Positions 3,212 through 47,812 of a DNA stretch of 64,000 nt are shown here, in pieces. Under the pieces are notes generated by a model that did not search any database, had not been told where the DNA came from, and saw nothing but the letters and a program-made list of their open reading frames with translations. This stretch comes from Paludibacteraceae bacterium. GTDB lineage: Bacteria > Bacteroidota > Bacteroidia > Bacteroidales > Paludibacteraceae. The DNA lies in NCBI GenBank assembly GCA_017467185.1, contig JAFTSS010000085.1:1-64000 (forward strand). The letters run 5' to 3'. The translations under genes were made by a program, and so were the position numbers. The stretch's first letter is position 1. Each line of letters opens with the position of its first letter.

Positions 3212-4297
3212 TTATTTGTTAGCAGCTTCGAATTCTTGCATGCAAGCTACGAGAGCTTTAACTGATTCAACTGGACATGCGTTGTAGATAGAAGCACGGA
3301 AGCCACCTACTGAACGGTGACCTTTGATACCTACCATACCGCGTTCTTTAGCGAATTCCATGAATGCTTTTTCTTTGTCTTCGTGACCTGGAGCCATTAC
3401 GAAGCAAACGTTCATGATTGAACGGTCTTCTTTAGCAGCAGTACCTACGAACATAGAGTTGCGGTCGATTTCGTTGTAAAGGAGGTCAGCTTTTTCAACG
3501 TTGATTTTGTTCATTGCTTCGAGACCACCGATTTTTTTCACCCATTTCAATGTTTCGTACATAACATAGATAGGGAATACAGGAGGAGTGTTGAACATAG
3601 AGATGTTGCGGTCTTCGTCAGCAGCATGAGTTTTGTAGTTAACCATTGTTTGAAGAGGACGATAGTTCTTTTCAAGAAGGTCGCGACGGATGATAACGAA
3701 AGTAACACCAGCAGGGCCTACGTTCTTTTGAGCACCACCGTAGATCATTGCGTATTTAGTAACGTCAACTGGACGGCTCATGATGTCTGATGACATATCT
3801 GCTACCAAGTCGATTGGGCAGTCCATATCGTAACGGATTTCAGTACCGTAGATAGTGTTGTTAGTTGTGATATGGAAATAGTCAGCATCTGTAGGGATTA
3901 CATAATCTTTAGGGATGTAAGAGTAAGTTTTGTCTTCAGATGAAGCAACAACTTCTACTTCGCCATAGAATTTAGCTTCTTTAGCAGCTTTTTTAGCCCA
4001 AACACCTGTTTGAAGATAAGCAGCTTTTTTGTTCAAAAGGTTAGCAGGTACGTGGAAGAATTGAGTTGAAGCACCACCACCGAGGAACAATACTTCGTAG
4101 TTGTCAGGAATATTCAAAAGATCGCGCCAGAGTTGACGAGTTTCAGCCATAACGCGTTCCCAACCTGGAGTACGGTGAGAAATTTCAAGAATACCGATAC
4201 CTGTGTTGTCAAAGTTACGGATTGCTTCGATAGCAGCTTCTACTGCTTCGCGTGGAAGTACGCAAGGACCTGCGTTGAAATTGTGCATTTGTTTCAT
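3212..4297 (-). CDS. serC: 3-phosphoserine aminotransferase
   Basis: 361 aa. The N-terminus [10 protein letters not shown] and overall similarity match the SerC class-V aminotransferase family. Confidence 0.9.
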
Positions 4298-4478
4298 AGT
4301 AAATTTTTTAATATGTTAAAAAACAGTTAGTTGTTGTTTTTGTGCGTAAAGTATAGTTTACGAGACAAAGGTAAGCATTAAATTGCTTATAAGCAAATTT
4401 TTGAGGAGGAATTTTTCAAAAATGTTTGTTTTTGTGTTTTGGGTAGTTTTTTTAGATATAATAACAGTTTTTTCTTTT

Positions 4479-4725
4479 AGACATAATGACATAAAGACAT
4501 AATTTTTTTTCTGCATACGCCTTGCTACATCTACGATGTATCTTGGCGGAAGAATGACAGACCTATCGGTATTAAAATCTGTCATTCTTTGGTTGAGATG
4601 AAACTTTGGTTTCAGCAAAGCTTATGTTAAGAGTGATAAATTTTGTCATTATGTCATTTTGTCTCAAAATTAATCTGTTTGAAATTAATTTTGAGTGAGT
4701 TTGCTACTATTTATAAGCTCTATTT
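4479..4725 (+). mobile_element. MITE-like element family A, copy 1 (terminal inverted repeats AGACATAATGACA / TGTCATTATGTCAT)
   Basis: Near-identical to copy 2 and similar to copy 3. It has an internal perfect hairpin aagaatgacaga...tctgtcattctt. Confidence 0.7.
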
Positions 4726-4730
4726 CTTTT

Positions 4731-4975
4731 AGACATAATGACATAAAGACATAATTTTTTTTTCTGCATACGCCTTGCTACATCTACGATGTATCTTGGC
4801 GGAAGAATGACAGACCTATCGGTATTAAAATCTGTCATTCTTTGGCTGAGATGAAACTTTGGTTTCAGCAAAGCTTGTGTTAAGAGTGATAAATTTTGTC
4901 ATTATGTCATTTTGTCTTAAAATTAATCTGTTTGAAATTAATTTTGAGTGAGTTTGCTACTATTTAACGTGAGTT
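4731..4975 (+). mobile_element. MITE-like element family A, copy 2 (tandem with copy 1)
   Basis: About 97% identical to 4479-4725. Confidence 0.7.
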
Positions 4976-9256: not shown

Positions 9257-9365
9257 GAGTGAGGAATTAGGAATTAGGAATTAGGAATGAGGAATTCGGA
9301 GTTAGGAATTGAATTTCTCAATTCTCAACTTTCAACTTTCAATTTTCAAATTTCAATTTTTTGTA
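9257..9365 (+). repeat. heptamer microsatellites (AGGAATT)n then (TCAACTT/TCAATTT)n immediately 5' of the antiporter start codon
   Basis: Direct inspection. Confidence 0.8.
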
Positions 9366-18233: not shown

Positions 18234-18690
18234 TAGTTTAGAGTTAAAAGTTTAGAGTTAAGAGTTAAGAGTTAAGAGTTTAGAGTTAAGAGTTAAGAGT
18301 TTAGTGTTTAGAGTTAAGAGTTAAGAGTTTAGTGTTTAGGGTTAAGAGTTTAGTGTTTAGAGTTAAGAGTTTAGTGTTTAGAGTTTAGTGTTTAGAGTTA
18401 AGAGTTTAGCGTTTAGAGTTAAGAGTTAAGAATTAAGAATTAAAAATTAAAACATTTAATTCCACATTCCACATTCCTCACTCCTCATTCCTCACTCCTC
18501 ATTCCTCATTCCTCATTCCCCATTCCTCATTCCCCATTCCTCATTCCCCATTCCTCATTCTCCATTCCTCATTCCCCATTCCTCATTCCACATTCCACAT
18601 TCCACATTCCTCATTCCTCATTCCCCATTCCTCATTCCACATTACTCATTCCACATTACTCATTCCACATTCCACATTCCTCATTCCTCA
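18234..18690 (+). repeat. two abutting heptamer microsatellite arrays, about 31 x (GAGTTAA/GAGTTTA/GTGTTTA) then about 33 x (CATTCCT/CATTCCA/CATTCCC)
   Basis: Direct inspection. The arrays fill the whole gap between the lptC-like stop and the gldE-like start. Confidence 0.9.
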
Positions 18691-19265
18691 ATAGGTATTG
18701 TGCCTTTTGGTTGGCGTATGCTGTATCGGCTGAAGGTTTGATTAGATTCGAACCCGATGCCGAGTATTTTTCTGTCTTTTTGGATGATTGTTATTGCAGA
18801 GTCGCTATATACGCGCTCTTCTTTTTGGTCCCAATATAGTTCATTGGTATAAAATTCCTCTTGGTTGAGATTTGTTGCCTCAATGTTGTCATTGAGTTTC
18901 CATAGTTCTAATTTGCTGTAATAAATTGCTTTATCGCATTCTATTTCAGCATCAATGTTGTAGTTTTCGTCGAAGCGTTCAAAACGTAATCCGTTTGGAA
19001 AATCCCAATATGGGGTATCGGCTTTTTCATAGACGTACCAATCTGGAGCTATAATTCTGTAACGGATTATACCAGAGTCGGATACGATGGTTGTTATTGA
19101 ATCGGCATACACCTGAGGTGTATGTTTTATATCAGTTATGGAAGATGTCATGTCGTGCTTTGTTTGGCACGAAAAAAATAATGCACAATGCAAAATGCAC
19201 AATGCACAAAAAAAATTAGATACGAGATGCGAGACACGAGATGCGAGACACGAGATGTGAGGCAT
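18681..19265 (-). CDS. hypothetical protein, possibly LptC-family periplasmic LPS-export protein. The start is uncertain (alternative ATG at 19151).
   Basis: 194 aa. The N-terminal 38 aa are encoded by an (ATGCACA)n heptamer tract. Conserved Bacteroides synteny (coaX - OMP - TPR - lptC - gldE - ppiD) supports the call. Confidence 0.35.
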   Translation of the reverse strand: MPHISCLASRVSHLVSNFFCALCILHCALFFSCQTKHDMTSSITDIKHTPQVYADSITTIVSDSGIIRYRIIAPDWYVYEKADTPYWDFPNGLRFERFDENYNIDAEIECDKAIYYSKLELWKLNDNIEATNLNQEEFYTNELYWDQKEERVYSDSAITIIQKDRKILGIGFESNQTFSRYSIRQPKGTIPIEE

Positions 19266-19288
19266 AAGTTGTTGAATAGTAAAAAATA

Positions 19289-19335
19289 GACACGAGACAC
19301 GAGAGCAAAAATCTTGTTTCTCGTGTCTTGTGTCT
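19289..19335 (-). terminator. hairpin built from inverted (GACACGA) heptamers, followed on the minus strand by a T-run; terminator of the TPR gene
   Basis: agacacgagacacgagagc-loop-ctcgtgtcttgtgtct, with atttttta downstream on the minus strand. Confidence 0.5.
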
Positions 19336-22036: not shown

Positions 22037-22807
22037 CTATTTTGATATATTTTTCGCAATAAAGTTTAATCCCTTTGGCACAAGCATCGGTTCAAAAAAT
22101 AGCGAGGAGTGAGAAGTGAGGAGCGAGGAGTTATCTATAATGTTTAAATTAAAAAGTCCTCCAGTCAATATCACTTTTAAGTTATTATACTCCTTTAAAT
22201 ATTTTTCAATGTAGCCATTTATTTCGTTTATCACACCCCAATATGCCCCATTCAAAATTGCCTCACGGGTTGTTAAGCCCAATTGAGCATTGTGCATTTT
22301 TTGCTTTGGTTCAAAACCATTTTCTATTGAGCATTGTGGAAGTGCTGCCGTAAAATGATGCATAGCATCCAATCTCATTTGTATGCCAGGGGCAATATTA
22401 CCACCTACGAAATGACCATCAATCAACAAATCGTACGTATTGCATGTGCCACAATCAATTACCAAATAATTTCCCTTGCCAGCAATTGCGTATGCCCCAG
22501 CCAAAGCCGCAATCCTATCCTTGCCCAAAGTTTCAGGTGTTAAGTAATCAATTTCGAATGGTAGAGGTGATTTGTATGACAATAGATGATATTTTGCGTC
22601 TATTTCGTCTAATAATTGTGCAATTCTTCTCTCTTTTTCAGGATTAACACTCGACACGATAACATATTTGAGTAGGTCAAACCGAGAAAACAAATTAACT
22701 ATGTCTTCTTTATTAAATTGTTCAAATACAATATGTTCAACCAACCGTTCTCCATCGAAAACAGCTGCCTTTGTTTTAGTATTGCCTATGTCGATAGTCA
22801 GTACCAT
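22037..22807 (-). CDS. coaX: type III pantothenate kinase
   Basis: 256 aa with N-terminus MVLTIDIGNTKTKAAVFDG, characteristic of CoaX. Confidence 0.85.
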   Translation of the reverse strand: MVLTIDIGNTKTKAAVFDGERLVEHIVFEQFNKEDIVNLFSRFDLLKYVIVSSVNPEKERRIAQLLDEIDAKYHLLSYKSPLPFEIDYLTPETLGKDRIAALAGAYAIAGKGNYLVIDCGTCNTYDLLIDGHFVGGNIAPGIQMRLDAMHHFTAALPQCSIENGFEPKQKMHNAQLGLTTREAILNGAYWGVINEINGYIEKYLKEYNNLKVILTGGLFNLNIIDNSSLLTSHSSLFFEPMLVPKGLNFIAKNISK

Positions 22808-25037: not shown

Positions 25038-25140
25038 CTCTCCAACTCTAAACACTCAACACTCAACATTCAACACTCAACACTCAACACTCAACACTCA
25101 ACTCTAAACACTAAACTCTCAACACTAAACTTTATATATT

Positions 25141-26629: not shown

Positions 26630-27094
26630 ATGATACAGAAAGATATTATTACTAATTTGGTTATCAGCAAATTAGCTGATACAAGATATTTTTTGGTTGA
26701 TGTTACAGTTTCGGCTGATAATGTGATAAAGGTAGAAATTGATGCCGAGGAGGGTGTTGATATTGACTTTTGTGTTGAACTAAATCGTTTTATTGAAGCT
26801 AACTTTGATCGTGAGGTGGAGGATTATGAGCTTGAAGTAGGTTCGGCAGGTCTTACATCTCCGTTTAAGGTGAAACGTCAATACGAAAAAAATCTAAACA
26901 AAGAGGTTGAAGTGTTAGAGGCGAATGGTATTAAGCATGAGGGCGTGTTGGTAGAGGTAGATGATGAAAAATTCGCTATTGACGAGACTAAAATGATACG
27001 TAAAGAAGGTGATAAGCGCAAAAAGCCTTATACAGAGCGTATAGAATTTAAGTATTCAGAAATAAAATATACAAAATATAAATTTAAAATTTAA
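26630..27094 (+). CDS. rimP: ribosome maturation factor RimP
   Basis: 154 aa in the conserved position before nusA. Confidence 0.8.
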   Translation: MIQKDIITNLVISKLADTRYFLVDVTVSADNVIKVEIDAEEGVDIDFCVELNRFIEANFDREVEDYELEVGSAGLTSPFKVKRQYEKNLNKEVEVLEANGIKHEGVLVEVDDEKFAIDETKMIRKEGDKRKKPYTERIEFKYSEIKYTKYKFKI

Positions 27095-27180
27095 TTTGAA
27101 ATTTTAAATTTGAAATTTTAAATCTTCGTTATGATTTTCAACTTTCAACTTTCAATTTTCAATTTTCAACTTTAAACGTA

Positions 27181-28431: not shown

Positions 28432-28509
28432 AATAAATAGTTATGAATTAGTATTTTTTATCTCTAATTCGTTAATAACTAATAATTAGTAACTAATAAC
28501 TAAAAATAT

Positions 28510-31579: not shown

Positions 31580-31625
31580 AGACACGAGATGTAAGACATA
31601 TTTGTCTTGTGTCTCGTGTCTTTTA
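31580..31625 (+). terminator. hairpin (agacacgagatgtaagaca / tgtcttgtgtctcgtgtct) plus TTTT after infB
   Basis: Inverted heptamer-family arms followed by a T-run. Confidence 0.55.
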
Positions 31626-31630
31626 GTAAT

Positions 31631-31700
31631 TAGTTTTTTTATAATTTCTATAGCCACTATAGCTACTATAGCCACTATAGTTTCTATAGCCACTATAACT
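31631..31700 (+). repeat. nonamer array (CTATAGCCA/CTATAGCTA)x~6 upstream of cvpA
   Basis: Direct inspection. The same family occurs at 47706-47790, 42141-42170 and 11745-11830. Confidence 0.8.
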
Positions 31701-31725: not shown

Positions 31726-32271
31726 ATGAACTATCTTGATATAATTTTAATTATACCTCTTGCTTATGGGCTTGTTCAGGGGCTTCGTAAGGGCTTGGTA
31801 AAAGAAATTGCAGGTTTGCTTGCTGTTGTTTTAGGTATCTATTTAGCGCGTTATTGGTCATTGCCAGCATCGCAAGCTTTGACAGAAATGACAGGTTGGG
31901 CAACAAATATTTGTACTCCTTTGGCATACGCTTTAGTTTTTATAGTTGTTTCTTTATCAATTTCTGCATTGTCATATATGCTCAGTAAGATAATAGGTGC
32001 AATTATGCTTGGTTGGCTCAATCGTCTGTTAGGCGCAGCTTTTGGCGTTGTAAAAATGACTCTATTGTTGAGTGTTATACTCAATTTTGTAGCAATTATG
32101 AATCAGTTTATGCCAATTAAAGATAAACCTGTGGTACAGCAATCATTGCTATATTCACCCATCGAAAATGTGATGAGTGCAGTTTTGCCTTTATTGAATT
32201 TTGAAGATTTTACAACTGCAGTTCGTGAAGGTGTTGTTGAGCCTGCAACTAAAGTAATCGAAGAACTTTGA
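31726..32271 (+). CDS. cvpA: CvpA-family membrane protein
   Basis: 181 aa with 4 TM helices, in the conserved position after infB. Confidence 0.75.
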   Translation: MNYLDIILIIPLAYGLVQGLRKGLVKEIAGLLAVVLGIYLARYWSLPASQALTEMTGWATNICTPLAYALVFIVVSLSISALSYMLSKIIGAIMLGWLNRLLGAAFGVVKMTLLLSVILNFVAIMNQFMPIKDKPVVQQSLLYSPIENVMSAVLPLLNFEDFTTAVREGVVEPATKVIEEL

Positions 32272-32310
32272 TGTGATTTTTATAAAAATAAATGCTGATT
32301 AGCATTAATG

Positions 32311-33241
32311 CTAATCAGCGTTTTTCATATCTATTGAATATTTTAGTCCAATGCGAAATTCATGATATTGCCAATCTTTAATGCCGTATTGATAGGCGAC
32401 GTATGGTTCTAATCCGTATGGGCAAGGAATGCCAATTTTTGTTTTTAATGTCATAGGTTTATCTCCATTATTTTGCCAGCCTATATAACCTCCCCATTCT
32501 GTGATTAGTCGTAAATATAGAGCTTCAAATTCAGCCCTTAATCCATACATGTAGGCATCGTTTTGTTCTGCTCGTCCTGTTTGCCAGCAATAGAATCCGA
32601 TTGACCCAGAAAGACTAAATGATTTTGCCCATTTATTTTCCCAATTTATTTTTTCGGCGAGTGCTAAATCTAAGAAGTATCCTGGAGCATCAATGAATCT
32701 TTTATTCTCAAAATTTCCTCCCGATGCTGTTTTTATGCCTATTCTAACAACTGCCGAAGGTATATATGGTGATGATTTTTTGAACCATTGGTGGTGCAAG
32801 ACTTGAATATTAGTGCTTACATAAATATCTCCAGCAACATTATGCCAATTATTTCGTGTCTCGTATCTCGTATCTCGTGTCTCGTATCTCGTGTCTCATG
32901 TCTCGTGTCTTTTTTTTTGAATAAAAATCCATTACCGAATACCAAGCCTCCAAATTTACCCAACGTGTAAAAAGAGGTATATTCAATCGTAGATTTGGTG
33001 TAAAAGTATTGCTTTGGTCAAATCCTCTAAAGTAACTTCCTGATATTTCTACTGAAAATTTATCTGAAGTTTCTCCCGACGACATCTCTATCACTGGCAA
33101 CGCATTGGGCCCCCACGGCATCTCTTGTCCCCACCCAAACAACGAAAAAAACAAAGCGCAACCTACGAGGCATAACCTCATACATTGCGCTTTAATATTT
33201 AGTTTGTAAGTCATAAGATTATGAGTTAATTTAACTTTCAA
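32311..33241 (-). pseudogene. outer-membrane protein gene split into two frames at a (TGTCTCG)~7.5 heptamer array plus T9 tract (32857-32918); candidate phase-variable or disrupted gene
   Basis: The upstream ORF (33241-32849, with signal peptide) ends inside the array. The downstream ORF (32799-32311) is open through the array in the other frame. Confidence 0.5.
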
Positions 33242-33269
33242 CTCTCAACTTTCAACTTTCAACTCGTTT

Positions 33270-35057
33270 TTACATTCTTTCAGGCATTTCAATGCCGAGC
33301 AATCCCATACCCGAAGTGATAACTTTAGCCACATTAGCAGAAAGTAATAGACGTAAGTTTTTAATCTCTGCATTCTCTTCCTTCAATATTGGAGATGCTT
33401 GATAGAATTGATTATACTCTTTCACTAAGTCATATACATAGTTGGCAATCAATGCAGGCGAGAAATCTTCACCAGCTTGGCGCACTACGTTAGGGTAGTT
33501 TGTAAGCATTTGAATGAGAGTACGTTCTTTGTCAGTAATTTCCATAGCCTCATTTGCTGCTACTACATTGATACCTTGTTCTGCAGCCTTGCGGAGAACT
33601 GATTTGATACGGGCGTTTGTATATTGAATAAATGGACCTGTATTTCCGTTAAAATCAATAGATTCTTTAGGGTTGAAAGTCATATTTTTGCGTGGATCGA
33701 CTTTCAAAATAAAATATTTTAATGCACCAAGACCGACCATGCGGCAAATGTCATTGATTTCCTCTTCCGAGCAATTATCTAATTTGCCAAGTTCGTCAGA
33801 TGTTTCGCGCGCTTGTGCCACCATTTCGGCAATCAAGTCGTCGGCATCAACCACAGTACCTTCGCGGCTCTTCATCTTACCTTCAGGCAACTCAACCATA
33901 CCGTATGAGAAGTGTACTAACTCTTTACCCCATTCAAAACCGAGTTCGTCGAGCAATAATGAAAGTACTTGGAAGTGATAATTTTGTTCATTACCAACCA
34001 CATACACCATTTTGTTGATAGGGTAGTCTTGATAACGGAGTTTAGCTGTACCAATGTCTTGAGTCATATATACAGAAGTACCGTCTGTACGCAACAACAA
34101 TTTCTCGTCCAAGCCATCGGCTGTCAAGTTAGCCCAAACTGAATTATCAGGGCGGCGGTAGAAAATGCCTTTTTCAAGACCTTCTTCCACTTTCGATTTA
34201 CCTTCGAGGTATGTGTCTGACTCATAGTATATTTTATCGAAATCGACACCCATTTTTTTGTATGTTTCGTCGAAGCCAGCATATACCCATTCGTTCATTT
34301 CGCGCCACAAAGCACGTACTTCAGGGTCGTTTTGTTCCCATTTCAAAAGCATAGCTTGAGCTTCAACCATAAGTGGAGCTTTACGTTTTGCCTCATCTTC
34401 TTCCATGCCTTGAGCCATAAGTTCTTTGACTTCGGCTTTATAATGTTTGTCAAATTCTACATAGTATTTTCCTACAAGGTGGTCGCCTTTCATGCCACTT
34501 GATGCAGGAGTTTCGCCATTGCCATATTTCAACCATGCCAACATCGATTTGCAGATGTGGATACCGCGGTCGTTTACTATGTTAGTTTTTACAATTTTCC
34601 AGCCATTAGCCTCTTGAATACGTGAAATAGAGTAGCCGAGAAGGTTATTTCTAATATGTCCAAGGTGTAAAGGTTTGTTAGTATTAGGTGATGAATATTC
34701 AATCATCATCAATGGCGAATTTTCATTTGCACGAGTATGGCCAAAGTCAGCGTCTGCATTGATATTATTGAGCGTAGCTACCCAATGTTGTTGATTTATC
34801 GAAAGATTCAAAAAACCTTTTACAACATTAAATTTAACTACAAGAGCCTCATTAGCAACCAAATATTCACCAATTTCAGTACTTACTTGTTCAGGTGCTT
34901 TGCGCGCAGCTTTTACAAAAGGGAAGGTTAACAACGTAATATCGCCTTCAAACTCACTGCGAGTTTTTTGTAATTGCACTGCACTCTCTTCAACTTCAAG
35001 GCCATAAAGCGATTTTACGGCAGCAACAACAGCTTTCGATAATTTAGTTTCAATCAT
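33270..35057 (-). CDS. argS: arginine--tRNA ligase
   Basis: 595 aa with the class I HIGH-region motif PNTNKPLHLGHIRNN, the KMSKS-region motif GKMKSREG and C-terminus ...GIEMPERM. Confidence 0.95.
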   Translation of the reverse strand: MIETKLSKAVVAAVKSLYGLEVEESAVQLQKTRSEFEGDITLLTFPFVKAARKAPEQVSTEIGEYLVANEALVVKFNVVKGFLNLSINQQHWVATLNNINADADFGHTRANENSPLMMIEYSSPNTNKPLHLGHIRNNLLGYSISRIQEANGWKIVKTNIVNDRGIHICKSMLAWLKYGNGETPASSGMKGDHLVGKYYVEFDKHYKAEVKELMAQGMEEDEAKRKAPLMVEAQAMLLKWEQNDPEVRALWREMNEWVYAGFDETYKKMGVDFDKIYYESDTYLEGKSKVEEGLEKGIFYRRPDNSVWANLTADGLDEKLLLRTDGTSVYMTQDIGTAKLRYQDYPINKMVYVVGNEQNYHFQVLSLLLDELGFEWGKELVHFSYGMVELPEGKMKSREGTVVDADDLIAEMVAQARETSDELGKLDNCSEEEINDICRMVGLGALKYFILKVDPRKNMTFNPKESIDFNGNTGPFIQYTNARIKSVLRKAAEQGINVVAANEAMEITDKERTLIQMLTNYPNVVRQAGEDFSPALIANYVYDLVKEYNQFYQASPILKEENAEIKNLRLLLSANVAKVITSGMGLLGIEMPERM

Positions 35058-40687: not shown

Positions 40688-42142
40688 TTCCTCATTCATC
40701 ATTCCTCATTCCTCATTTTTAATATTTTTACCTTCATATTTTCAATCATTCTTCTCGTATTAGGCTATGTAGTATATGGTCGCATAGTCGCTCGAGTTTT
40801 TGGTGCAGACTCCAATCGTGTAACACCAGCCATAGCCAATCCCGATGGTGTTGACTATGTATCAATGCCATGGTGGAAAATTTTCCTTATTCAATTTCTT
40901 AATATTGCAGGGCTTGGACCTATTTTTGGCGCAATTATGGGAATCATGTTTGGTCCATCTGCATTTCTTTGGATTGTATTTGGCTCTATATTTGGTGGTG
41001 CTGTACATGATTATCTTTCGGGTATGTTGTCTATGCGACGCAATGGTGCATCATTGCCTGAATTAGTGGGTGAACAACTCGGTATGGGGGTTAAGCAATT
41101 TATGCGCGTTTTTTCGCTTTTGTTGATGGTGCTTGTTGGTGCTGTTTTTGTAAGCGGTCCTGCAGGTTTGCTTGCTGGTATGGTGAAATCTATTAGCGTT
41201 ACTTGGTGGATTGTAATTATTTTCGGCTATTATATGCTTGCAACTTTGCTCCCTATCGATAAACTCATTGGTAAAATCTATCCATTGTTCGGATTTGCTC
41301 TACTTTTTATGGCTGTAGGTATTTTGGTTTCTTTGTTTATTAACAACGCACCAATACCTGAAATTACATCTGGACTTGCAAGCCAACATCCACAAGGTTA
41401 TTCAATTTTTCCAATGATGTTTGTCTCTATTGCATGTGGGGCAGTCTCTGGTTTTCATGCTACTCAGTCGCCTATGATGGCACGCTGTATGACGAATGAA
41501 AAATATGGTCGTCCATGTTTTTATGGAGCTATGATTGCCGAAGGCATTGTTGCTCTTATTTGGGCAGCAGCAGCCTCTTCGTTCTTCGGTTCAGTTGGTG
41601 GATTGCAAGAGTATGTTGCCTCTTTACCTGCTACTGCAAACAAGGCTGCTGAGGTTGTTAATCTTATATCTAACACTTGGTTAGGTAAATTTGGTGGTAT
41701 TTTGGCCGTGTTGGGTGTTGTGGCTGCTCCTATTACTTCGGGCGATACAGCTCTCCGTTCAGCTCGCCTTATTGCTGCCGATTTTTTACATATTGATCAA
41801 AAACCAATTCTTAAGCGTCTTATGGTGGCAGTACCTCTTTTCGTGGGTACATTCATATTATTACAAATCAATTTTGATGTAATTTGGCGTTATTTTGCTT
41901 GGAGCAATCAAACACTTTCTGTCTTTACTTTTTGGGCATTGACAGTATATCTTTATAAGGAAAAACGTTGTTATTGGATAACTTTAATTCCTGCTCTATT
42001 TATGACTGCTGTATGTTCTGCCTATATTATGGTTGCCCCAGAAGGTTTCGGTCTCCCACTATATATAGGCTATATCGTCGCCGCAGTTGTTTGTATAGTT
42101 TTTACTCTTTTATTTATTCGTTTCACAAAAAATAAACTATAG
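40688..42142 (+). CDS. cstA: carbon starvation protein CstA; no canonical start, and the 5' end overlaps the (TTCCTCA)n array
   Basis: CstA homology (LGYVVYGRIVARVFGADSNRVTPAIANPDGVDYV...) starts upstream of the first ATG (40865) and runs back to the stop at 40685 inside the heptamer array. Confidence 0.7.
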   Translation, partial: FLIHHSSFLIFNIFTFIFSIILLVLGYVVYGRIVARVFGADSNRVTPAIANPDGVDYVSMPWWKIFLIQFLNIAGLGPIFGAIMGIMFGPSAFLWIVFGSIFGGAVHDYLSGMLSMRRNGASLPELVGEQLGMGVKQFMRVFSLLLMVLVGAVFVSGPAGLLAGMVKSISVTWWIVIIFGYYMLATLLPIDKLIGKIYPLFGFALLFMAVGILVSLFINNAPIPEITSGLASQHPQGYSIFPMMFVSIACGAVSGFHATQSPMMARCMTNEKYGRPCFYGAMIAEGIVALIWAAAASSFFGSVGGLQEYVASLPATANKAAEVVNLISNTWLGKFGGILAVLGVVAAPITSGDTALRSARLIAADFLHIDQKPILKRLMVAVPLFVGTFILLQINFDVIWRYFAWSNQTLSVFTFWALTVYLYKEKRCYWITLIPALFMTAVCSAYIMVAPEGFGLPLYIGYIVAAVVCIVFTLLFIRFTKNKL

Positions 42143-42214
42143 CTACTATAGTTCCTATAGGTTCTATAATTCCTCATTCCTCATTTCTCATTTCTCATTT
42201 CTCATTCCTCATTC
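42141..42214 (+). repeat. nonamer (CTATAGNNC) then heptamer (CATTCCT/CATTTCT)x7 array immediately 5' of the helicase start
   Basis: Direct inspection. Confidence 0.8.
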
Positions 42215-46950: not shown

Positions 46951-47715
46951 ATGAATTGTGCATTATATTTAGTTCCTACCCCTGTAGGCAATCTCGAAGA
47001 CATAACATATCGTGCCTTACGAATTCTAAAGGAGGTGAATCTTGTGCTTGCCGAAGATACTCGCACTACGGGTATCCTTTTCAAACATTTTGATATTCAC
47101 ACTCCTATGGCATCGCATCACAAATTCAACGAACATAAAACCATAGCACATTTTGCCGATCGCATTCTCGCTGGCGAATCCATAGCATTAGTTAGCGATG
47201 CTGGCACTCCTGCAATTTCTGACCCTGGTTTTATGCTTGTGCGTGAGTGCGTTGCTCGTGGCATTAGAGTAGAGTGCCTCCCTGGAGCTACAGCTTTTGT
47301 ACCCGCATTAGTCGATTCAGGCTTGCCAACCGATCGTTTCTGTTTCGAAGGATTCTTGCCACAGAAAAAAGGCAGACAAACCAAATTACAATTGCTTATT
47401 TCTGAAGATCGTACAATGATTTTCTACGAATCCCCATACCGACTTGTAAAAACACTCCAACAATTTGCTGAAGTCTTTGGCTCAGAACGTCAAGCATCAG
47501 TTTCACGCGAAATATCTAAAATGTTCGAAGATACACAACGTGGTACGCTACAACAGCTTATCGAACATTTTACAGCCATACCACCCAAAGGCGAAATCGT
47601 AATTGTAGTAGCTGGAGCTAGTAGAGACGCAATACATTGCGTCTCAACAGGCGAAGATAAAGATGAAGAACAAGACCTCGCAAAAATCCGAAAATCCAAA
47701 AAACATAGATTATAG
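46951..47715 (+). CDS. rsmI: 16S rRNA (cytidine1402-2'-O)-methyltransferase
   Basis: 254 aa with N-terminus LYLVPTPVGNLEDITYRALRIL. It carries a C-terminal in-frame palindromic-element insertion. Confidence 0.85.
   Translation: MNCALYLVPTPVGNLEDITYRALRILKEVNLVLAEDTRTTGILFKHFDIHTPMASHHKFNEHKTIAHFADRILAGESIALVSDAGTPAISDPGFMLVRECVARGIRVECLPGATAFVPALVDSGLPTDRFCFEGFLPQKKGRQTKLQLLISEDRTMIFYESPYRLVKTLQQFAEVFGSERQASVSREISKMFEDTQRGTLQQLIEHFTAIPPKGEIVIVVAGASRDAIHCVSTGEDKDEEQDLAKIRKSKKHRL
47621..47645. repeat. palindromic element gtagagacgcaatacattgcgtctc embedded in-frame near the 3' end of rsmI (encodes SRDAIHCVS)
   Basis: Perfect 10-bp arms. Confidence 0.7.
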
Positions 47716-47812
47716 CGGCTATAGCAACTATAGCAACTATAGCGGCTATAGCAACTATAGTAACTATAGCAACTATAGTTGCTAATTCCTAACTCCTCAT
47801 TCCTCATTCTCA
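47706..47812 (+). repeat. nonamer array (CTATAGCAA/CTATAGCGG)x~9 followed by (CATTCCT) heptamers, abutting the HAD-hydrolase start codon
   Basis: Direct inspection. Confidence 0.85.

Follow-up and report, generated by a model that had tools for sequence, protein, structure and literature searches.

Translational phase variation by simple sequence repeats (SSR) within genes is known from the opa genes of Neisseria with their CTCTT pentamers, from the tetranucleotide loci of Haemophilus influenzae and from homopolymers in Campylobacter and Helicobacter. Classical contingency tracts are perfect, and interruptions reduce their slippage rates. Heptanucleotides are at work in hmw1A and hmw2A of non-typeable H. 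influenzae, where 7-bp tandem repeats are located upstream, in the promoter or leader, and grade expression. In gut Bacteroidales, to our knowledge, phase variation has been known almost only as the flipping of promoters by invertases. A recent review of phase variation mentions Bacteroides only for invertase-mediated systems (PMC11868660); by this measure, a switch based on repeats would be out of the ordinary for this order. Intergenic direct repeats of a heptamer, TAACTGA, have been reported from Beggiatoaceae, cyanobacteria and five Bacteroidetes including Paludibacter propionicigenes (MacGregor 2015, PMC4679880).

Here, we analysed a stretch of 64,000 nucleotides from a Paludibacteraceae bacterium, referred to as the window, and describe a gene for a predicted outer-membrane beta-barrel that is cut into two reading frames by nine adenines and eight imperfect heptamers. 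On balance, we favour the view, drawn from sequence comparison, that this tract is a functional mutational ON/OFF switch and the gene a candidate phase-variable locus. As in Neisseria opa and the Haemophilus contingency loci, the repeat is intragenic and resides in an outer-membrane gene, the frame is toggled by units, and ON as well as OFF alleles are found among relatives; in common with SSR systems as a class, both a homopolymer and a longer-unit repeat appear to act. Unlike in opa and the Haemophilus loci, the unit is an imperfect heptamer, which is rare among intragenic switches, and it encodes a loop in the middle of the protein instead of lying in the leader or at the 5′ end; a neighbouring homopolymer adds a further source of frame changes. 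The host, an uncultured gut member of the Bacteroidales, and the differing loop lengths of the ON alleles also set the locus apart from the classical SSR loci. With hmw1A/hmw2A it shares a heptanucleotide copy number that varies between strains and would affect expression of the protein (a surface protein there, a predicted barrel here), whereas its repeat is coding and would act by frameshift, with a separate heptamer array located 19 nt upstream of the ATG. Likeness to the cyanobacterial STRR and TAACTGA repeats (PMC4679880) lies in the many period-7 arrays per genome, which are mostly intergenic, composed of mixed units and lineage-specific. In contrast to these repeats, at least 15 unit families are present here, and the array under study is intragenic and changes the frame, which is not the role proposed for the former; the TAACTGA unit (search with TAACTGATAACTGA, up to one mismatch) has 0 matches in the window. 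The outcome, ON/OFF heterogeneity of the envelope in gut Bacteroidales, would be the same as for the invertase systems of Bacteroides that act on capsules and SusC/D-like proteins (PMC11868660), but those flip promoters by site-specific inversion, whereas a repeat-driven frameshift would be used here. The mechanism itself, frame switching by SSR, is already known; it is its occurrence in the Bacteroidales that is unusual.

A barrel gene divided by a repeat tract

The gene occupies positions 32311-33214 of the minus strand, which is the coding strand, so that the A run (32918-32910) is read before the eight heptamers (32909-32854). Together, they divide the gene into an N-terminal open reading frame (ORF) of 121 aa and a C-terminal frame. 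The features discussed below are as follows:

32311-33214, minus strand: whole gene, for a 12-stranded outer-membrane beta-barrel protein (fold predicted) of an unnamed family; 298 aa once one heptamer is removed
33128-33214, minus strand: part encoding the predicted signal peptide, residues 1-29, MTYKLNIKAQCMRLCLVGCALFFSLFGWG, with probable cleavage before the following Q
32849-33214, minus strand: N-terminal ORF, 121 aa, comprising signal peptide, strands 1-3 and a repeat-encoded tail; hypothetical protein IJY67_09495 in a public metagenome-assembled genome (MAG)
32910-32918, minus strand: A9 homopolymer (T9 on the plus strand), directly 5′ of the array; the second slippage-prone tract
32854-32909, minus strand: heptanucleotide array with the units GACACGA, GACATGA, GACACGA, GATACGA, GACACGA, GATACGA, GATACGA and GACACGA, out of frame with the A9 run upstream
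32896-32898, minus strand: TGA in the C-terminal frame, arising from the C-to-T variant in unit 2 (GACATGA)
32849-32851, minus strand: stop codon TAA of the N-terminal ORF, 3 nt past the last heptamer unit
32311-32895, minus strand: C-terminal frame with strands 4-12, which is open between unit 3 and TAG 32313-32311 and has no signal peptide
32294-32319, minus strand: terminator-like hairpin (GCTGATTAGCAT TAATGCTAATCAGC plus a T-run) that overlaps the stop codon and is common to the convergent cvpA
33233-33264, minus strand: second heptamer array, 4.6 copies of GAAAGTT (coding strand), located in the 55 nt that separate the argS stop from the ATG of the barrel gene and ending 19 nt before the ATG

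The sequence-only reading from which we started had proposed a heptamer array next to a T9 run, and this is what we found: Tandem Repeats Finder (TRF) reported a period-7 array at 32854-32910 with 8.1 copies, 88% matches and a score of 86, adjoining T9 at 32910-32918. The 14-mer double unit GACACGAGAYACGA, allowing up to one mismatch, occurs 11 times in the window as compared to 0 times in 100 shuffles. The eight units fall into three variants (GACACGA four times, GATACGA three times, GACATGA once). Thus, the array is not a perfect tract of the kind typical for contingency loci, the longest stretch without a mismatch being the 14-mer GACACGAGATACGA in two copies; the A9 run contains no interruption.

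The arithmetic of the frames was corrected in part. The N-terminal ORF, which ends in SKKKTRDMRHEIRDTRYEIRDTK, had been thought to terminate inside the array, whereas its TAA lies just beyond the last unit. The C-terminal frame had been regarded as open through the whole array, which applies from unit 3 onwards and fails upstream, where the TGA of unit 2 (32898-32896) interrupts it. The proposal that loss of one unit fuses both ORFs into a protein of about 300 aa proved correct for units 2-8: simulated deletion of any one of these yields a single ORF, with 298 aa if counted from ATG 33214 and 307 aa if counted from TTG 33241, while simulated deletion of unit 1 does not join the ORFs. A simulated two-unit duplication at positions 3-8 joins them as well (305 aa). 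A change of one base in the homopolymer, which had been put forward as a second way to fusion, has to be abandoned. Simulated changes from A9 to A8, A10 or A11 all hit stops (114, 141 and 115 aa, respectively, from TTG 33241) and leave the ORFs separate, because they meet either the TGA of unit 2 or a stop in the third frame (after IIGIMLLEIFM). As a consequence of the TGA in the C-terminal frame, there is no rescue via the homopolymer or via loss of unit 1. A peptide bridging the loop would, for example, extend from FYSKKKTRDMRHEIR to NWHNVAGDIYVSTN.

TTG 33241 is simply the start codon that comes first downstream of the preceding stop. The peptide LNIKAQCMR is kept in orthologues, which favours ATG 33214, and the N-terminal ORF thus probably starts there. 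Its predicted signal-peptide region consists of basic residues followed by a hydrophobic stretch, and in the AlphaFold2 (AF2) model a helix comprising residues 7-25 precedes the barrel. We considered a lipoprotein on account of the sequence LVGC and discarded this idea, since the hydrophobic stretch ahead of the cysteine is too short and the helix runs on to residue 25. The first start codon of the C-terminal frame is TTG 32799, giving an ORF of 162 aa that is annotated as IJY67_09490. The C-terminal frame is free of secondary lesions. Within 32150-33450, a region covering both ORFs, the hairpin at 32319-32294 is the sole terminator-like site, and the same scan revealed nothing promoter-like or terminator-like between the N-terminal and the C-terminal ORF.

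That a single gene is present, as had been suggested, is well borne out by its homologues. A search with the fused, repeat-free sequence retrieved 301 of them, the close ones being single proteins of 276-310 aa that cover 99-100% of the query. Assignment of the gene product to the outer-membrane beta-barrels is supported at the level of the fold: a predicted N-terminal signal peptide is followed in the structural model by a closed antiparallel barrel of 12 strands. Fold comparison gave figures of 19.3 for FapF, 19.0 for a COG4313 channel, 18.5 for NanC, 18.2 for KdgM and 16-18 for autotransporter barrels, although sequence identity to FapF, COG4313 channels, NanC/KdgM porins and autotransporter beta-domains amounts to only 7-14%. 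By sequence, the protein belongs to none of the FapF, KdgM/NanC, COG4313 or autotransporter families, and searches of Pfam, NCBIfam and PDB sequences yielded no family match; an Rfam search returned nothing informative. Many polar motifs are invariant (GPNALP, KTASGG, CWQT, QNDA), which suggests a specific function.

The array is positioned in the loop that connects strands 3 and 4; following the usual topology rule, this would be extracellular loop 2. Modelling of an ON protein with 10 units (P0002) again gave a barrel (pTM 0.73), with residues 99-127 as a loop of low confidence. Since the tract lies in a mid-protein loop, ON alleles also vary in loop length, in steps of 7 aa. The barrel has a second variable loop, after strand 4, which corresponds to about 32773-32799 in the window (HHQWFKKSSP) and is devoid of heptamers there; in other species it carries (CAACTCT)n-like inserts (QSTTSNSQLSILNSQLQ; L002, positions 3438-3471, and P0046, P0047 and P0061).

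Alleles at the tract

Among genome records, MAGs of the order Bacteroidales named Candidatus Aphodosoma sp. or Paludibacteraceae bacterium come closest. A metagenome scaffold with BioSample SAMN15829954 in its record name matches the window at 100% identity over 6.4 kb. In at least 4-5 assemblies of the window strain, the consensus is the OFF allele with eight units. Exact-sequence look-up of seven simulated ON revertants of this strain gave 0 hits in a collection of 15 billion proteins, which holds consensus gene calls only. One further scaffold of the same strain (L029, with SAMN15829957 in the record name) has a gap of 100 Ns exactly inside the array between flanks that are 100% identical to the window. 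This gap could stem from arrays of differing length in the sample, or simply from a break in the assembly.

We compared alleles within a species-level cluster (at least 90% protein identity) at the site between WYSVMDFY and NVAGDIY:

A9 + 10 units, ON: L012-L014, L033, P0123, P0131 and P0132
Interrupted A-run + 7 units, ON: L015-L018 and P0133
4 units, ON: P0126, P0128 and P0129
1 unit, ON: P0001 and P0003
A8 + 2 units, ON: P0124 and P0134
A9 + 8 units, OFF: the window; N-terminal ORF on 4-5 contigs, C-terminal ORF on 7-8
A8 + 10 units, OFF: L034 and L035, which come from two separate sample records
14-nt tandem duplication in a 1-unit allele, OFF: L032

Interrupted A-runs occur in the forms AAATATAAG, KNK and QKK. 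The comparison of orthologues that the sequence-only reading had named as a check thus revealed polymorphism in copy number and in homopolymer length, and both in-frame and out-of-frame states. Outside the cluster, an allele of the AATGCAC type (L020) lacks exactly one 7-nt unit and is OFF, which brings the OFF alleles that arose independently at this site to at least four (window, L034/L035, L032 and L020); P0139 is probably a further one. For three of them the nearest ON relative is 97-98.5% identical in the flanks, as compared to only 87% for L020. The window allele differs from its nearest ON counterpart (L033, flanks 98.5% identical) by one 14-nt indel, which removes both variant bases of the 10-unit array. 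Judged from this alignment, it would most simply be explained by a 14-nt deletion from 10 to 8 units, i.e., a change from ON to OFF.

By our own count, 13 of about 16 distinct allele types are in frame as compared to one-third expected without selection (P about 1e-4), and all 14 loci retrieved by DNA-based scans were in frame as well. The protein is thus selected to be made while the length of the tract keeps changing. The metagenome scan yielded only 5 loci, all of them in frame, and a search with the N-terminal part only 6 short proteins, numbers so small that the allele counts give no unbiased ON:OFF frequency. Four candidates were set aside: P0074/L019 has a 10-N scaffold gap in L019, L021 (with P0072) is a rearranged or chimeric contig, P0138 looks chimeric at the array, and P0137, 114 aa on a 1-kb contig and ending within the array, was left as ambiguous.

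In more distant species the loop is filled by a degenerate AATGCAC-type heptamer (MHNAQCT) that is fixed at 66 nt, by degenerate AGACACG-type inserts of 42-45 nt, or there is no array (21 nt). The degenerate arrays of fixed length in most other lineages look like frozen loop insertions.

The gene order PF03601-argS-[gene]-cvpA-infB is kept in most relatives whose flanks were read. The exceptions are L012-L014 and L034/L035 (gene 96-98% identical), where a tRNA-like sequence or yidC instead of cvpA-infB is located downstream. The 5′ and 3′ ends of the barrel gene are mosaic among relatives (e.g., C-terminus IDIKKS versus IDMKNAD), which, taken together with the changed downstream neighbours, suggests recombination around the locus. 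The GAAAGTT array upstream of the gene is shared by L012-L014, whereas L015-L018, which are 92% identical, have unrelated sequence in its place. The array could tune expression of the barrel gene independently of the coding switch.

Heptamer arrays across the window and the clade

The array in the barrel gene is one of many. Scattered over the window are about 30 blocks of period-7 arrays, which add up to 1.6 kb and belong to at least 15 unit families. They are mostly intergenic, and 15 of the 30 end no more than 30 nt upstream of an approximate start codon. Examples are found at 18235-18690, 25043-25130, 9262-9360, 27079-27173, 42169-42214, 47785-47809 and 28473-28503; in one adjacent pair, 30 copies of AGTTAAG are followed by 33 copies of ATTCCTC. 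Units are reused across loci (ATTCCTC at 5 loci), and the GACACGA family appears again at 19218-19335 and 31603-31621. With 3-7 heptamer arrays per 10 kb in the loci of relatives, the arrays are a trait of the whole clade, which weakens the inference that the repeat was selected at the barrel locus.

Heptamers have also entered a normally essential gene. In coaX for type III pantothenate kinase (22037-22807, minus strand), four in-frame copies of ACTCCTC are present near the C-terminus at 22104-22131 (NSSLLTSHSSL), in addition to an MHNAQ patch (two copies of AATGCAC) at about 22270. In a perfect heptamer array, each of the three frames encodes the same 7-aa repeat, and GACACGA, AATGCAC, ACTCCTC and CAACTCT contain no stop codon when read in the sense direction, which explains why heptamers are tolerated in loops.

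Some arrays are more complex. The spacer upstream of an LptC-like gene (19178-19335) contains 4.6 copies of AATGCAC, three copies of AGACACGAGATGCG and, after these, two AGACACG arrays in inverted orientation that are able to pair as a hairpin (AGACACGAGACACGAGAG with CTCGTGTCTTGTGTCT); the AATGCAC and AGACACG unit types are those that fill the loop of the barrel gene in different species. A second recurrent repeat family consists of nonamers with a TATAGC-containing unit (CTATAGCCA, TATAGCAAC), which are present in 4-8 copies at 31648-31697, 42136-42168 and 47711-47778, in intergenic positions adjoining heptamer arrays. At 4471-4966, a direct repeat of 253 nt occurs in two copies that are 98% identical and contain mini-arrays of an 8-mer (GACATAAT).

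Interpretation of the divided gene and its meaning

According to the mechanism that we propose, the loop between strands 3 and 4 would be encoded by a slippage-prone A9 run plus imperfect GACACGA heptamers, and gain or loss of units, singly or as a 14-nt double unit, as well as changes of single adenines would shift the downstream 60% of the gene into or out of frame. Slipped-strand mispairing is the presumed mutational process. With A9 and eight units, the strain studied here is out of frame (OFF), and only a stub of 121 aa with a signal peptide can be made; the C-terminal part is without an export signal and the barrel would thus be absent. Return to ON would be possible through loss of one unit (giving 7) or gain of two (giving 10), not through the homopolymer. 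In agreement with an SSR contingency locus, the repeat is intragenic, its copy number toggles between full-length and truncated protein, and the tract is polymorphic with independent ON and OFF changes. We infer from this pattern that the polymorphism is used as phase variation and not merely tolerated. Strictly, phase variation requires that a clone switches often and reversibly; the 100-N break inside the array of L029 and the undamaged C-terminal frame may be hints of this. The interrupted tract, the single OFF consensus across assemblies and the lack of an ON revertant on record speak against frequent switching.

The same three observations fit a one-off pseudogene, which we regard as possible, though rather unlikely: the array would be a by-product of the genome-wide spread of heptamers in a tolerant loop, and a slip would have killed a dispensable gene with no meaningful reversible switching. 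Such an origin would be in line with the abundance of heptamer blocks in the window, where nearly all are intergenic, and in every relative, and with the in-frame insertions in coaX and at the second barrel loop. In addition, two contigs (P0141 and P0142) have lesions in the gene that are unrelated to the array; these likewise speak against frequent switching, and loss of the gene may simply be tolerated. A single accident is, however, difficult to reconcile with frame changes that recur independently at least four times at the same tract among close relatives, via both heptamer and homopolymer. It is also at odds with the clean in-frame ladder of 1, 4, 7 and 10 units, which indicates that the length of the array keeps changing while the ORF stays under selection, and with a C-terminal frame that is still intact in the window.

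An artefact of assembly or sequencing that conceals an intact gene with 7 or 10 units is very unlikely. Tandem repeats do assemble poorly, as the same-strain scaffold with Ns in the array illustrates, and the split calls in L019 and L021 proved to be artefacts. Against this, the array spans just 56 nt, which is below short-read length and below the k = 141 of some of these assemblies, and the identical 8-unit sequence turns up both in the NCBI MAG and in at least 4-5 contigs, which stem from different sample records.

Even less probable is recoding, by which ribosomal frameshifting or transcriptional slippage at the A9 run would yield the full-length protein from unchanged DNA. Read in the N-terminal frame, the sequence A AAA AAG is a −1 slippery heptamer of the classic type, and runs of nine adenines are known substrates for transcriptional slippage, but every −1, +1 or +2 outcome at this site stops before the C-terminal part, and we rejected it as a programmed site for frameshifting or slippage. 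A −1 shift or one extra A leads to the third frame and a stop after HEIIGIMLLEIFM. If the shift is +1, or if the run has one A too few or two too many, the C-terminal frame is entered upstream of the TGA of unit 2 and translation ends after KKRHET. No slippery site is present downstream of that TGA. Two genuinely separate genes, as listed in the public MAG (IJY67_09495 and IJY67_09490), can practically be dismissed, given that all orthologues are single proteins, that the halves are strands 1-3 and 4-12 of one barrel, and that the C-terminal part is without a signal peptide, has only a TTG start and is preceded by no promoter- or terminator-like site between the ORFs.

If the mutational switch that we favour is the correct explanation, the NCBI MAG contains two hypothetical proteins, entered separately, where one switchable gene stands. 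A repeat-based frame switch in a barrel gene would point to a second, cheaper route to envelope heterogeneity, serving for example the escape from phages or host immunity. The host lineage is abundant in the gut of livestock and uncultured, and public metagenomes already contain a natural ladder of ON and OFF alleles. The barrel locus may also offer a handle on the poorly understood heptamer arrays of the clade. One could go further and imagine that heptamer microsatellites form a genome-wide contingency system in the Candidatus Aphodosoma/Paludibacteraceae clade, in which arrays upstream of start codons tune expression while those in envelope genes toggle the frame and vary loop length. This extension is doubtful at present; if it were true, repeats would be the basis of phase variation in this lineage, as invertases are in Bacteroides.
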